A model generated the notes under the pieces. That model had not been told where the DNA came from and did not search any database. It saw only the letters and a program-made list of their open reading frames with translations. Positions 55-60,041 of a DNA stretch of 64,000 nt are shown piece by piece (positions within the stretch are counted from its first letter, which is position 1; each line of letters begins with the position of its first letter). Both the position numbers and the translations under genes were made by a program. The DNA is from Escherichia coli (GTDB taxonomy: Bacteria; Pseudomonadota; Gammaproteobacteria; Enterobacterales; Enterobacteriaceae): assembly GCF_003334405.1 (NCBI RefSeq), contig NZ_QOWM01000007.1; one strand, 5' to 3'.

Positions 55-155
55 TGCCTGATGCGCTACGCTTATCAGGCCTACGAAAATCTTGCAATGT
101 ATTGAATTTTCATGATTTTGTAGGCCGGATAAGGCGTTCACGCCGCATCCGGCAA
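55..155. repeat. Pair of REP (repetitive extragenic palindromic) elements in inverted orientation
   Basis: gcctgatgcgctacgcttatcaggcctac and gtaggccggataaggcgttcacgccgcatccggc match the E. coli REP consensus. Confidence 0.6.
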
Positions 156-10214: not shown

Positions 10215-10316
10215 TACATCGTAGCCGATGAGGACGCGCCTGATGGGTGTTCTGGCTACCTGACCTGTCCATTGTGGAAGGTCTTACATTCTCGCTGATT
10301 TCAGGAGCTATTGATT

Positions 10317-10730
10317 ATGCGTAACTTTGATTTATCCCCGCTTTACCGTTCTGCTATTGGATTTGACCGTTTGTTTAACCACTTAGAAAACAACCAGAGC
10401 CAGAGTAATGGCGGCTACCCTCCGTATAACGTTGAACTGGTAGACGAAAACCATTACCGCATTGCTATCGCTGTGGCTGGTTTTGCTGAGAGCGAACTGG
10501 AAATTACCGCCCAGGATAATCTGCTGGTGGTGAAAGGTGCTCACGCCGACGAACAAAAAGAGCGCACCTATCTGTACCAGGGCATCGCTGAACGCAACTT
10601 TGAACGCAAATTCCAGTTAGCTGAGAACATTCATGTTCGTGGTGCTAACCTGGTAAATGGTTTGCTGTATATCGATCTCGAACGCGTGATTCCGGAAGCG
10701 AAAAAACCGCGCCGTATCGAAATCAACTAA
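10317..10730 (+). CDS. ibpA: Small heat-shock protein IbpA (alpha-crystallin family)
   Basis: 137-aa [20 protein letters not shown]... recognised as IbpA; Shine-Dalgarno aggag at 10303-10307; the ORF-track start at 10311 is an upstream TTG. Confidence 0.95.
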
Positions 10731-22632: not shown

Positions 22633-23817
22633 TTAAACGGGCTGCCCCTGATGCGACATCCGCGTCGCCAGCGGCAGCCAGCACAGCACGATCAACAATC
22701 CCATTAAGGTCATCAACAACCCCAGGCTGCCCTGACCGGTTTGCGGCAACATCGCAGAGAGCGACGCCAGCACGCCGGAACCAATGTTTTGCAGACCGCC
22801 GACCAGCGCGCCAGCCGTGCCCGCCAGGAAGGGGAACGGCTCCATCGCGCCGCTGGTCGCCAGCGGAAACAGCATCCCGGCACCGAAAAAGAACAGCGCG
22901 GCGGGAACGAGCAGCGTCCAGACATTCATCACGCCAAACCAGTCGGGGATCCACATCAGCAAGCCAGCCAGCAGGCAGCAGATAACCGACTGCCACATTA
23001 ACGTGGAGAAGCGTTTATTGGGACGTCCGGCAAACCATGCGCCAAAAAACGCTGCCGGAATCGGCAGAATAAACAAAATACTGACCGTCATACTGCTCAG
23101 CCCTAACACCGCGCCCATCAGCACGCCGGAGCAGGCTTCAAAGGCGGCAATCCCGGCCAGACCGCCAATCAGCATCAGCAAATAACAGTTAAAACCGCTG
23201 TTACCGAAAAGCGTTTTATAACTGGTAAGCAGGCGCGTGCGCGGTGCATCGACCGGACGCGTTTCCGGCATCCAGCGGGCCATACTGAAGGTCACACCAG
23301 CACAAAGAACCAACAAAAAGAGATAACAGGCGCGCCAGTTCCACATCGTATCCAGCAGACCGCCGATTAGCGGTGCGAGCAACGGACTGACGAGAATCCC
23401 CATGTTTAACAGGCTGTTAGCATGGCGCAACTGTGTCCGTTCATATAAATCTCGCGGTAAAGTACGCGCCATTACGCCGCCAACGCCGGTGCCCATCCCC
23501 TGCATCGCGCTGGCGGCAATCAACACCGTCAAACTGGAGGTCGTGACCGCGACCAGCGTTGCCAGCATAAAAATGGACATTCCGACGAGGATCACCGGTC
23601 GGCGGCCCACGCGGTCGGAAATCGGGCCATAAAACAGCTGTGAGACACCGTAAGTCAGCAGATAAGCGCCCATTACGCTCTGCACCGCCCCTTCACGGAC
23701 GTTGAGATCGCGCGCCATATCGGCAATAGCTGGAATATAAATGGTTTGCGCCATCTGACCGACGGCCACGAGTAATACCAACATCAATAACAAATTGACG
23801 TTTCTTTGCCTTTTCAT
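22633..23817 (-). CDS. emrD: Multidrug efflux MFS transporter EmrD
   Basis: ORF 22633..23823 trimmed to MKRQRNVNLLLMLVLLVAVGQMAQ... (394 aa). Confidence 0.9.
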   Translation of the reverse strand: MKRQRNVNLLLMLVLLVAVGQMAQTIYIPAIADMARDLNVREGAVQSVMGAYLLTYGVSQLFYGPISDRVGRRPVILVGMSIFMLATLVAVTTSSLTVLIAASAMQGMGTGVGGVMARTLPRDLYERTQLRHANSLLNMGILVSPLLAPLIGGLLDTMWNWRACYLFLLVLCAGVTFSMARWMPETRPVDAPRTRLLTSYKTLFGNSGFNCYLLMLIGGLAGIAAFEACSGVLMGAVLGLSSMTVSILFILPIPAAFFGAWFAGRPNKRFSTLMWQSVICCLLAGLLMWIPDWFGVMNVWTLLVPAALFFFGAGMLFPLATSGAMEPFPFLAGTAGALVGGLQNIGSGVLASLSAMLPQTGQGSLGLLMTLMGLLIVLCWLPLATRMSHQGQPV

Positions 23818-23991
23818 TATCACGGATGCTTTTATAAAAATAATTAGAATAAGTCACTACGCATTCCCATAAATGCGGGAGAGGAATCTATCACATTGAT
23901 GAATGTTAGCCAGATATACGCCAGGAATGGGGAATTGTTTAGCGGCAGAATATGTAAACAAAAGCGGCAATAAATGTTGCCGGGAGAGATG

Positions 23992-24028
23992 GTAGGGCGG
24001 ATAAGATGCGTCAGCATCGCATCCGACA
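23992..24028. repeat. REP element
   Basis: gtagggcggataagatgcgtcagcatcgcatccgaca resembles the REP consensus. Confidence 0.5.
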
Positions 24029-24042
24029 CCAACCCGCACGCT

Positions 24043-24077
24043 AAATATAAAAGGGGAGCGGTTTCCCGCTCCCCTTT
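24043..24077 (-). terminator. Rho-independent terminator of the tisAB transcript
   Basis: aaggggagcgg-ttt-cccgctcccctt hairpin 20 bp past the tisB stop, followed on the minus strand by a T-run. Confidence 0.6.
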
Positions 24078-24096
24078 GGTGCGACTTGAATCTGAA

Positions 24097-24186
24097 TTAC
24101 TTCAGGTATTTCAGAACAGCATCAAGCAGTTGCAGTGCTGCAACAATGAGTTTGAGGATAAGAATGGCGATATCCACCAGGTTCAT
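24097..24186 (-). CDS. tisB: Type I toxin TisB (29-aa membrane peptide, SOS-induced)
   Basis: Minus-strand translation gives MNLVDIAILILKLIVAALQLLDAVLKYLK then stop; too short for the ORF track. Confidence 0.9.
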   Translation of the reverse strand: MNLVDIAILILKLIVAALQLLDAVLKYLK

Positions 24187-24420
24187 ACGCGTCTCCTGTG
24201 GTTCAGGAGCACTGCCAGCTGACGTACCTTTCCGCTGCCTGTTGCCAGCTGTTGTGCACGCGGTATCTCAAGGAGAAACGTTGTGCTTGTTGACATAACA
24301 CAGTGTGCTCACGCGGGGTTAAGGCGCTGACGGCACCACCCGTTTCAGCCAGGACTTAGTGCGCCGGGTAACGATGCGGCCCCCGCATAACACATTGCGT
24401 ACAGTGATATTATAGAAGTT

Positions 24421-24440
24421 TACTGTATAAATAAACAGTA
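24421..24440. promoter_or_regulatory. LexA operator (SOS box) of the tisAB/istR locus
   Basis: tactgtataaataaacagta, a perfect 20-bp palindrome matching the CTGT-N8-ACAG consensus, about 235 bp upstream of tisB. Confidence 0.85.
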
Positions 24441-24546
24441 ATATTTGGACAAAACGCAAACTGTGATCGATACTCAACTATGCACTAAATACGTCAAAAT
24501 TCGTGCCGAAATTGCGCGTTCTGCGCGGAACACGTATACTTTCAGT

Positions 24547-24622
24547 GTTGACATAATACAGTGTGCTTTGCGGTTACCAGCCGCAGGCGACTGACGAAAC
24601 CTCGCTCCGGCGGGGTTTTTTG
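24547..24622 (+). ncRNA. istR: Candidate IstR-1 antitoxin sRNA (boundaries approximate)
   Basis: Candidate -10 tatact at 24535-24540; a 21-nt segment (24547-24567) repeats the tisAB leader segment 24319-24339; ends at a hairpin plus gggtttttt at 24601-24622. Confidence 0.5.
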
Positions 24623-24750
24623 TTATCTGCAATTCAGTACAAAACGTGATCAACCCCTCAATTTTCCCTTGCTGAAAAATTTTCCATTGTCTCCCCTGTA
24701 AAGCTGTGCTTGTATAAATATTGTTAAACACAAAACCAACAAGGTCCCCA

Positions 24751-24849
24751 ATGACTACTTCCATGCTCAACGCAAAACTACTACCAACTGCGCCATCCGC
24801 CGCAGTGGTCGTCGTGCGTGTGGTGGTGGTCGTCGGCAATGCGCCGTAG
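24751..24849 (+). CDS. ivbL: ilvB operon leader peptide
   Basis: Translates MTTSMLNAKLLPTAPSAAVVVVRVVVVVGNAP, with the Val/Leu-rich run typical of a branched-chain amino acid attenuation leader. Confidence 0.9.
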   Translation: MTTSMLNAKLLPTAPSAAVVVVRVVVVVGNAP

Positions 24850-24954: not shown

Positions 24955-26643
24955 ATGGCAAGTTCGGGCACAACATCGACGCGTAAGCGCTTTACCGGCG
25001 CAGAATTTATCGTTCATTTCCTGGAACAGCAGGGCATTAAGATTGTGACAGGCATTCCGGGCGGTTCTATCCTGCCTGTTTACGATGCCTTAAGCCAAAG
25101 CACGCAAATCCGCCATATTCTGGCCCGTCATGAACAGGGCGCGGGCTTTATCGCTCAGGGAATGGCGCGCACCGACGGTAAACCGGCGGTCTGTATGGCC
25201 TGTAGCGGACCGGGTGCGACTAACCTGGTGACCGCCATTGCCGATGCGCGGCTGGACTCCATCCCGCTGATTTGCATCACTGGTCAGGTTCCCGCCTCGA
25301 TGATCGGCACCGACGCCTTCCAGGAAGTGGACACCTACGGCATCTCTATCCCCATCACCAAACACAACTATCTGGTCAGACATATCGAAGAACTCCCGCA
25401 GGTCATGAGCGATGCCTTCCGCATTGCGCAATCAGGCCGCCCAGGCCCGGTGTGGATAGACATTCCTAAGGATGTGCAAACGGCAGTTTTTGAGATTGAA
25501 ACACAGCCCGCTATGGCAGAAAAAGCCGCCGCCCCCGCCTTTAGCGAAGAAAGCATTCGTGACGCAGCGGCGATGATTAACGCTGCCAAACGCCCGGTGC
25601 TTTATCTGGGCGGCGGTGTGATCAATGCGCCCGCACGGGTGCGTGAACTGGCGGAGAAAGCGCAACTGCCTACCACCATGACTTTAATGGCGCTGGGCAT
25701 GTTGCCAAAAGCGCATCCGTTGTCGCTGGGTATGCTGGGGATGCACGGCGTGCGCAGCACCAACTATATTTTGCAGGAGGCGGATTTGTTGATAGTGCTC
25801 GGTGCGCGTTTTGATGACCGGGCGATTGGCAAAACCGAGCAGTTCTGTCCGAATGCCAAAATCATTCATGTCGATATCGACCGTGCAGAGCTGGGTAAAA
25901 TCAAGCAGCCGCACGTGGCGATTCAGGCGGATGTTGATGACGTGCTGGCGCAGTTGATCCCGCTGGTGGAAGCGCAACCGCGTGCAGAGTGGCACCAGTT
26001 GGTAGCGGATTTGCAGCGTGAGTTTCCGTGTCCAATCCCGAAAGCGTGCGATCCGTTAAGCCATTACGGCCTGATCAACGCCGTTGCCGCCTGTGTCGAT
26101 GACAATGCAATTATCACCACCGACGTTGGTCAGCATCAGATGTGGACCGCGCAAGCTTATCCGCTCAATCGCCCACGCCAGTGGCTGACCTCCGGTGGGC
26201 TGGGCACGATGGGTTTTGGCCTGCCTGCGGCGATTGGCGCTGCGCTGGCGAACCCGGATCGCAAAGTGTTGTGTTTCTCCGGCGACGGCAGCCTGATGAT
26301 GAATATTCAGGAGATGGCGACCGCCAGTGAAAATCAGCTGGATGTCAAAATCATTCTGATGAACAACGAAGCGCTGGGGCTGGTGCATCAGCAACAGAGT
26401 CTGTTCTACGAGCAAGGCGTTTTTGCCGCCACCTATCCGGGCAAAATCAACTTTATGCAGATTGCCGCCGGATTCGGCCTCGAAACCTGTGATTTGAATA
26501 ACGAAGCCGATCCGCAGGCTTCATTGCAGGAAATCATCAATCGCCCTGGCCCGGCGCTGATCCATGTGCGCATTGATGCCGAAGAAAAAGTTTACCCGAT
26601 GGTGCCGCCAGGTGCGGCGAATACTGAAATGGTGGGGGAATAA
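24955..26643 (+). CDS. ilvB: Acetolactate synthase I large subunit (ThDP-dependent)
   Basis: 562-aa ORF; Shine-Dalgarno aaggactggag; recognised IlvB sequence. Confidence 0.95.
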   Translation: MASSGTTSTRKRFTGAEFIVHFLEQQGIKIVTGIPGGSILPVYDALSQSTQIRHILARHEQGAGFIAQGMARTDGKPAVCMACSGPGATNLVTAIADARLDSIPLICITGQVPASMIGTDAFQEVDTYGISIPITKHNYLVRHIEELPQVMSDAFRIAQSGRPGPVWIDIPKDVQTAVFEIETQPAMAEKAAAPAFSEESIRDAAAMINAAKRPVLYLGGGVINAPARVRELAEKAQLPTTMTLMALGMLPKAHPLSLGMLGMHGVRSTNYILQEADLLIVLGARFDDRAIGKTEQFCPNAKIIHVDIDRAELGKIKQPHVAIQADVDDVLAQLIPLVEAQPRAEWHQLVADLQREFPCPIPKACDPLSHYGLINAVAACVDDNAIITTDVGQHQMWTAQAYPLNRPRQWLTSGGLGTMGFGLPAAIGAALANPDRKVLCFSGDGSLMMNIQEMATASENQLDVKIILMNNEALGLVHQQQSLFYEQGVFAATYPGKINFMQIAAGFGLETCDLNNEADPQASLQEIINRPGPALIHVRIDAEEKVYPMVPPGAANTEMVGE

Positions 26644-41422: not shown

Positions 41423-41517
41423 TGGCGGAAGATCACAGGAGTCGAACCTGCCCGGGACCGCTGGCGGCCCCAACTGGATTTGAAGTCCAGCCGCCTCACC
41501 GGAGACGACGATCTTCC
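41423..41517 (-). tRNA. selC: tRNA-Sec (selenocysteine tRNA, UCA anticodon)
   Basis: Minus strand reads GGAAGATCGTCGTCTCCGGTGAGGCGGCTGGACTTCAAATCCAGTTGGGGCCGCCAGCGGTCCCGGGCAGGTTCGACTCCTGTGATCTTCCGCCA, the E. coli selC sequence, 95 nt including the encoded CCA. Confidence 0.95.
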
Positions 41518-60021: not shown

Positions 60022-60041
60022 AACTGTATTTATATACAGTT
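60022..60041. promoter_or_regulatory. LexA operator upstream of dinD
   Basis: aactgtatttatatacagtt, a CTGT-N8-ACAG palindrome, 44 bp upstream of the dinD start. Confidence 0.7.

Follow-up and report, generated by a model that had tools for sequence, protein, structure and literature searches.

Genomic context and identity of the locus

The locus described here lies within a 64,000-nt stretch of an Escherichia coli contig (hereafter, the window) and comprises the toxin gene tisB with its leader on the minus strand, the small RNA gene istR on the plus strand, and a LexA box between them. The module is located between emrD and ivbL-ilvBN and has the same neighbours as in E. coli K-12: emrD (22633-23823, minus strand), ysdE (23899-23973, plus strand), ivbL (24751-24849, plus strand), and ilvB (24955-26643, plus strand). 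The 661-bp segment 24040-24700 is 100% identical to the chromosome of E. coli K-12 MG1655, as well as to many other E. coli chromosomes. Window positions were obtained by subtracting the K-12 position from 3877739. The curated K-12 record NC_000913.3 lists tisB as b4618 and, in the same interval, the ncRNA gene istR, with two products, as b4616.

A preliminary description, made from the sequence of the window, had interpreted this region as a tisB/IstR locus. The interpretation is borne out by the RefSeq annotation, where tisB, IstR-1 and IstR-2 occupy exactly these places in the identical K-12 DNA, and alignment to the reference istR locus agreed with the proposed placement of the small RNA. 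We are thus practically certain that this is a type I toxin-antitoxin module, the chromosomal tisB/istR-1 system of E. coli K-12. It is already known; indeed, it is the reference locus itself and does not differ from the K-12 module. The errors of the preliminary description are limited to details, namely the coordinate of the first repeat copy, the distance from this copy to tisB, and the perfection of the LexA palindrome. The gene for a 29-aa toxin, the LexA operator, and the logic of pairing in trans were all correctly recovered from raw sequence, which gives the locus the value of a positive control.

The tisB gene and the tisAB mRNA leader

The tisB coding sequence occupies positions 24097-24186 of the minus strand, including the stop codon, and encodes the 29-aa membrane toxin MNLVDIAILILKLIVAALQLLDAVLKYLK, in agreement with the minus-strand peptide proposed earlier. 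The product is identical to WP_001054909.1 and YP_001165331.1 and matches both NCBIfam equivalogs for TisB, NF011340 (69.6 bits, cutoff 53) and TIGR04459, above their cutoffs. It represents the K-12 (N2) variant with asparagine at position 2; serine at this position is the commonest form among the metagenome matches described below (53 of 103 intervals) and has been reported as the majority form in E. coli (PMC11264685). The gene is followed by an intrinsic terminator hairpin with a perfect 12-bp stem and a 4-nt loop (24050-24077, minus strand). The Shine-Dalgarno sequence AGGAGA (24192-24197, minus strand), identified in the sequence and listed as the ribosome-binding site (RBS) in Table 1 of PMC11264685, is predicted by partition-function folding to be buried in all three forms of the mRNA, the +1, +42 and +106 forms, with an unpaired probability of 0.01-0.06.

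These forms are known from previous work. The primary +1 mRNA is untranslatable, whereas removal of 41 nt gives the active +42 form with a 30S/S1 standby site located about 100 nt upstream of the sequestered RBS; pairing of IstR-1 across the standby region prevents standby, and cleavage by RNase III yields the inert +106 form (PMC6690012; also PMC4147584). In the window, the tisAB transcription start was placed at about 24402, 7 nt after the -10 box, and the positions of the +42 and +106 ends were derived in the same way. The first ~41 nt of the primary mRNA, absent from the active form (PMC6690012, PMC8145889), would then correspond to 24361-24402 of the minus strand. The IstR-1 target, which coincides with the ribosome standby segment (24289-24310, minus strand; PMC6690012), would extend from about +93 to +114, and the +106 end would fall at 24297, inside the duplex, in agreement with the published data. 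The standby segment is 92-113 nt away from the Shine-Dalgarno sequence, close to the published distance of about 100 nt from the RBS.

The istR gene and its two products

The antitoxin small RNA IstR-1 (24547-24621, plus strand) begins with a single-stranded 5' tail, followed by an internal stem-loop and a terminator. The Rfam istR model RF01400 matches positions 24492-24621 of the plus strand over its full length, with 150.1 bits compared to a gathering score of 45. Other Rfam matches in the window are a ROSE_2 RNA thermometer (10251-10323, plus strand, 100 bits), tRNA-Sec (41427-41517, minus strand, 84 bits), and the ES036 small RNA (77-119, minus strand, 45 bits). The short plus-strand unit of the preliminary description, with a -10 box and a terminator of its own, is indeed present: the -10 box TATACT is located at 24535-24540, and the intrinsic terminator (24596-24621, plus strand) is composed of a 10-bp stem (24596-24619) followed by a T run. 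The proposed 5' end requires a small correction, as the RefSeq start is 24549 instead of 24547 (24549-24621, 73 nt). In the minimum free energy (MFE) fold of IstR-1, the first 12 nt are unpaired and are followed by the stem-loop and the terminator; this predicted layout, with a free 5' tail, is the usual one for an antisense seed.

The longer product, IstR-2 (24482-24621, plus strand; RefSeq b4616; PMC2826370), is a 140-nt RNA that is controlled by LexA and includes the whole of IstR-1. Since the pairing segment is part of IstR-2, and since the promoter elements of IstR-2 are conserved in E. coli (PMC11264685), one could argue that IstR-2, rather than IstR-1, is the functional antitoxin. However, the MFE fold of IstR-2 places GUUGA, with which the pairing segment begins, in a 5' helix, whereas IstR-1 presents the first 12 nt of the same segment as a free tail. 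Moreover, IstR-1 has been described as the constitutive antitoxin and IstR-2 as LexA-controlled and without repression of tisB (PMC2826370, PMC11264685), and the Citrobacter loci have an 11-nt deletion upstream of the part modelled in Rfam while IstR-1 is kept. We therefore consider an antitoxin role of IstR-2 highly improbable and regard IstR-1 as the antitoxin of the module.

The LexA box and the divergent promoters

The LexA box TACTGTATAAATAAACAGTA at 24421-24440 is common to the divergent tisAB and istR-2 promoters. It had been described as a perfect 20-bp palindrome at these coordinates; the coordinates are confirmed, but 4 of the 20 positions differ from the reverse complement. All asymmetric positions are in the AT-rich centre, and the outer arms, TACTGT and ACAGTA, are symmetric. 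The box has two mismatches to the consensus TACTG(TA)5CAGTA, and its heterology index was reported to be lower than that of the other LexA-controlled genes of E. coli (PMC9040746).

On the minus strand, the box ends 6 bp upstream of the -10 element TATAAT of the tisAB promoter (24409-24414; PMC11264685, Table 1). On the plus strand, the istR-2 promoter (24446-24474), formed by TGGACA, a 17-nt spacer and GATACT and identified both by a consensus scan and in Table 1 of PMC11264685, is located 6 bp from the box. The istR-1 promoter (24512-24540, plus strand; PMC11264685, Table 1) is composed of TTGCGC, a 17-nt spacer and TATACT, and is kept in divergent loci.

Only two consensus-like LexA sites were found in the 64 kb of the window, compared to 0 expected by chance. 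The second site, AACTGTATTTATATACAGTT at 60022-60041, has three mismatches to the consensus and is located 43-62 bp upstream of dinD (in K-12 coordinates); presumably, it is the dinD SOS operator.

The repeat and the IstR-1/leader duplex

The module contains a segment repeated on the same strand. The second copy reads GTTGACATAATACAGTGTGCT at 24547-24567, exactly where it had been described, and 20 of its 21 positions are identical to the first copy, also as described. The first copy, GTTGACATAACACAGTGTGCT, is at 24289-24309 and had been misplaced by 30 positions, at 24319-24339, where the sequence is TTAAGGCGCTGACGGCACCAC. As a consequence, it is found 103-123 nt upstream of the tisB ATG, instead of the approximate distance of 130 nt given before, and it overlaps the ATG of tisA. 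The gtgct...gcgg tails noted after both copies are out of register with each other (CACGCGG versus TTGCGG) and carry no information. A repeat finder recovered the pair as a family of 22-nt repeats (D2; 24288-24309 and 24546-24567, 95% identical), and a pattern search with up to three mismatches found only these two sites in 64 kb, compared to 0.00 expected from 100 dinucleotide-preserving shuffles.

Since the two copies are on the same strand and are transcribed in opposite directions, the repeat itself is present in IstR-1 and its complement in the tisAB mRNA, and hence the two RNAs can pair. The antisense segment of IstR-1 (24547-24568, plus strand), that is, the second copy extended by one nucleotide, pairs with the minus-strand mRNA at 24310-24289, and the one position at which the copies differ (C/T) forms a G.U wobble. 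In K-12 the duplex comprises 22 bp, two of them G.U pairs; counted from the RefSeq 5' end at 24549, it has 20 bp.

Several further similarities were observed in this region. An extended IstR-1/leader duplex calculated by duplexfold (-78 kcal/mol), which includes the terminator arm, was rejected as a functional structure, as the calculation ignores stable intramolecular hairpins; the leader part of this duplex (CCCCGCG) is not conserved in other lineages, which also argues against its function. The leader segment 24307-24320, immediately 5' of the IstR-1 target, is identical at 12 of 14 positions to the descending arm of the istR terminator (24604-24617); this similarity, which permits a long predicted duplex, is not conserved in other lineages and is probably fortuitous. 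Finally, the repeat core occurs a third time, as a partial copy (CATAACACATTG; D1) at 24386-24397, which corresponds to about +6 to +17 in the primary tisAB transcript and is absent from the +42 form.

Conservation of the duplex in homologous loci

Homologous loci were collected by two scans. The exact 20-mer of the LexA box is common at SOS genes throughout Proteobacteria, and the scan of a genome collection with this 20-mer returned mostly unrelated SOS operators; tisB loci accounted for 4 of 120 stretches (one from E. coli and three from Citrobacter). Metagenome contigs were scanned for the TisB core LQLLDAVLKY in degenerate back-translated form; this query is independent of the pairing segment. 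The 111 stretches obtained contained 80 unique full-length intervals, with more than 20 variants of TisB. Two pattern matches (L154 and L230) were set aside as chance matches inside unrelated long ORFs, and one locus with a truncated leader (L168, see below) was set aside from the pairing set.

When the 80 unique intervals were searched blindly for the best ungapped repeat shared by leader and distal region, 77 gave the same segment as in K-12; the other three are L154, L230 and L168. The homologous intervals also share the general layout of the module: a CTGT-N8-ACAG box is present between the copies in 75 of 77 intervals, the distance from the end of the TTGCG/TATACT (or TATAGT) promoter to GTTGA is 6 nt, and the length of the small RNA up to the end of the T run is 74-79 nt in 76 of 77 intervals.

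To assess pairing, we wrote the 38 distinct combinations of small RNA and mRNA segments as in-register hairpins and counted the pairs. Standard pairs occupied 90.1% of cells in 25 columns, compared to 23-48% when the partner was slid by 1-3 columns; these loci were anchored on the conserved core motif, so that very divergent pairing sites would escape the count. Pairing was almost complete in the central 22 columns. Both partners changed at three pairs: G-C in 22 combinations and A-U in 13, C-G in 35 and U-A in two, and U-A in 36 and A-U in one. Several other pairs alternated between G-C or A-U and G.U. A single A.C mismatch inside the duplex was observed in two Citrobacter loci, at the pair corresponding to K-12 positions 24553/24295, and, one position further in, in five metagenome variants. 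The IstR-1/leader duplex is conserved with compensatory changes across these 38 homologous loci.

This pattern also bears on the nature of the repeat. Both copies contain a perfect TTGACA hexamer (24290-24295 and 24548-24553), and the third, partial copy at 24386-24397 might be counted with them; the repeat could accordingly be a DNA-level signal made of two -35 elements, or else a functionless relic of chance or duplication, and no pairing device at all. However, the promoter scan found no suitably spaced -10 element after either hexamer, and the second copy is the transcribed 5' end of IstR-1. Further, the copies co-vary so that RNA pairing is kept, including single changes compatible with G.U pairs, which a DNA-binding signal would not need, and the chance expectation of zero argues against a chance relic. 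We consider the probability of a DNA signal or a relic to be negligible, and interpret the repeat as an RNA pairing device.

The homologues are also informative about tisA, a 37-aa ORF at 24183-24296 of the minus strand, which was reported to be untranslated (PMC2826370). Its ATG (24294-24296) is inside the IstR-1 target and its end overlaps the start of tisB in an ATGA sequence (24183-24186); in addition, its conservation among E. coli strains exceeds 99% (PMC11264685). Such an arrangement would be expected under a coupling mechanism in the style of hok/mok, in which IstR-1 blocks translation of tisA, translation of tisB is coupled to that of tisA, and ribosome standby is not involved. In contrast, outside E. 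coli tisA is lost, but TisB and the pairing site persist. Most variants from outside E. coli have ACG or ACA in place of the ATG and a leader shorter by 34 nt, with the pairing site 67-89 nt from the tisB ATG; where an ORF remains, it encodes an unrelated peptide. Changes of this kind, including a different 46-aa ORF, are seen among loci L092, L115, L130, L133, and others. The tisA product had no family match in the NCBIfam search, and in addition to the reported lack of tisA translation, standby binding has been demonstrated directly (PMC2826370, PMC6690012). The loss of tisA outside E. coli is consistent with the view, already published, that tisA does not represent a real gene, and we regard translational coupling as a very improbable explanation compared with blocking of the standby site.

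Two loci deviate from the common layout. The Rfam istR model matched 10 of 11 divergent loci, the exception being L162 (metagenome contig Ga0302349_1021903, 1876-2200). This divergent homologue has a K-12-like layout and a different small RNA terminator, and falls below the Rfam istR gathering threshold; its pairing site is located 140-163 nt upstream of tisB, and the duplex contains two mismatches. Locus L168 (metagenome contig OIXA01009399.1) contains an E. coli-type tisB with unrelated sequence starting from about 100 nt upstream of the ATG, and has no pairing site, promoter, LexA box, or istR. A rearrangement or a chimeric assembly could explain this structure.

Predicted occlusion of the standby segment by the mRNA 5' end

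According to partition-function folding, the unpaired probability of the target is 0.39 in the +1 form versus 0.48 in the +42 form. This difference is small, and the exposure of the standby segment upon processing was not convincingly reproduced by these predictions. In the MFE structure of the K-12 +1 form, nucleotides 3-22 form a helix with the 5' half of the target. Analysis of 25 leader variants by RNAalifold did not recover this long-range 5' helix and gave no compensatory pairs. The MAFFT alignment could not hold the highly variable 5' ends in register, and duplex energies calculated per sequence and compared to shuffles were used instead. In all 25 distinct leaders, the first 30 nt are able to form a strong duplex with the target (-22 to -33 kcal/mol), with a median z of -2.5 relative to dinucleotide shuffles. 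When the K-12 5'-end helix was projected onto the other leaders, 82% of cells were paired, compared to 28-63% in slid registers, with modest covariation. As a whole, the comparative analysis provides a small confirmation of the published scheme: divergent enterobacterial homologues keep the duplex of IstR-1 with the leader as well as the capacity of the mRNA 5' end to occlude the standby segment.

In some enterobacterial lineages represented in metagenomes, the mRNA 5' end contains a perfect IstR-like decamer, CACAGUGUGC. The module thus features three related copies of one motif: the 5' end of IstR-1, the standby/target segment, and the partial copy at 24386-24397. One might speculate that the 5' occluder acting in cis and the antitoxin acting in trans are evolutionary paralogues, both derived from local duplication of a leader fragment, and that the copy in istR subsequently gained an antisense promoter. 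We put this scenario forward as a tentative and rather unlikely one; if true, it would suggest a general route for the origin of divergently encoded type I antitoxins (istR, agrB, orz, ohsC).

Reconstruction of the regulatory mechanism

The mechanism of IstR-1 named in the preliminary description is the published one (PMC6690012, PMC4147584, PMC8145889). In the reconstruction given below, identity to K-12, the sequence elements, the complementarity with its conservation and covariation, and the sequestered Shine-Dalgarno sequence come from the present analysis, and the transcripts, processing sites, standby binding, RNase III cleavage, SOS control, and phenotype are taken from the literature. 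Expression of tisAB is repressed by LexA and strongly induced by DNA damage (PMC2826370, PMC8145889). LexA bound to the 24421-24440 box would repress both the minus-strand tisAB promoter and the plus-strand istR-2 promoter, and its removal upon DNA damage would allow synthesis of the tisAB mRNA of about 350 nt. The primary +1 transcript is expected to be translationally inert, with the tisB RBS buried and the upstream single-stranded standby segment occluded by the 5' end of the same mRNA. Loss of the first 41 nt would produce the +42 mRNA, in which the standby segment (24289-24310), located some 100 nt upstream of the RBS, is free and may load 30S/S1, which would then slide to the tisB start.

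Constitutively expressed from its own plus-strand promoter, IstR-1 (about 75 nt) would pair with the standby segment through its single-stranded 5' end (24547-24568). The resulting duplex is expected to block standby binding and to be cut by RNase III, leaving the inert +106 mRNA. Once the tisB mRNA exceeds IstR-1, TisB would be inserted into the inner membrane, collapse the proton motive force, and promote dormancy, giving rise to persisters. This mechanism was published for this exact sequence, as were detection of the ~75-nt plus-strand RNA, mapping of the duplex, and induction with mitomycin C or ciprofloxacin, and we found nothing that contradicts it.

Distribution of the module in E. coli

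Using a 2-kb query, we found the full emrD-ilvB interval in 4349 of 5426 complete E. coli genomes. In about 20% of complete E. coli genomes, including that of strain Nissle 1917, emrD, ysdE, ivbL and ilvB are kept without tisB/istR. In Nissle 1917, about 114 bp of unrelated sequence between ysdE and ivbL take the place of positions 23986-24632 (647 bp). The replaced segment runs from just past the tisB terminator to just past the istR terminator, and the whole tis/istR module appears, by sequence comparison, to behave as a presence/absence cassette of about 647 bp. Variation of this kind in the presence of tis/istR was reported for E. coli (PMC11264685). The same 2-kb interval contains an ISL3-like ISKox3 element in strain M217, and an extra ~139 bp at some position within it in many E. 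coli strains.

Comparison with related toxin-antitoxin systems

Three other divergently encoded type I systems of E. coli, dinQ/agrB, zorO/orzO, and shoB/ohsC, resemble tisB/istR in several features: (i) the toxin is a small hydrophobic protein, (ii) its mRNA has a long structured 5' UTR, and (iii) a divergent small RNA is complementary to the leader, clear of the translation start and coding sequence of the toxin (PMC4147584). The similarity is further extended in dinQ, which is also controlled by LexA and has an active processed mRNA (PMC3567139). However, the toxin and small RNA sequences of these systems are different, they are encoded at other loci, and none of them is involved here. The hok/sok system is also of type I, and shares with tisB/istR an inert primary transcript, an activating processing step, and cleavage of the duplex by RNase III. 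In hok/sok, the activating processing occurs at the 3' end, and Sok is a cis-encoded, overlapping antisense RNA that blocks the coupled leader ORF mok, whereas in tisB/istR the small RNA is encoded apart from its target and blocks the standby site (PMC4147584).
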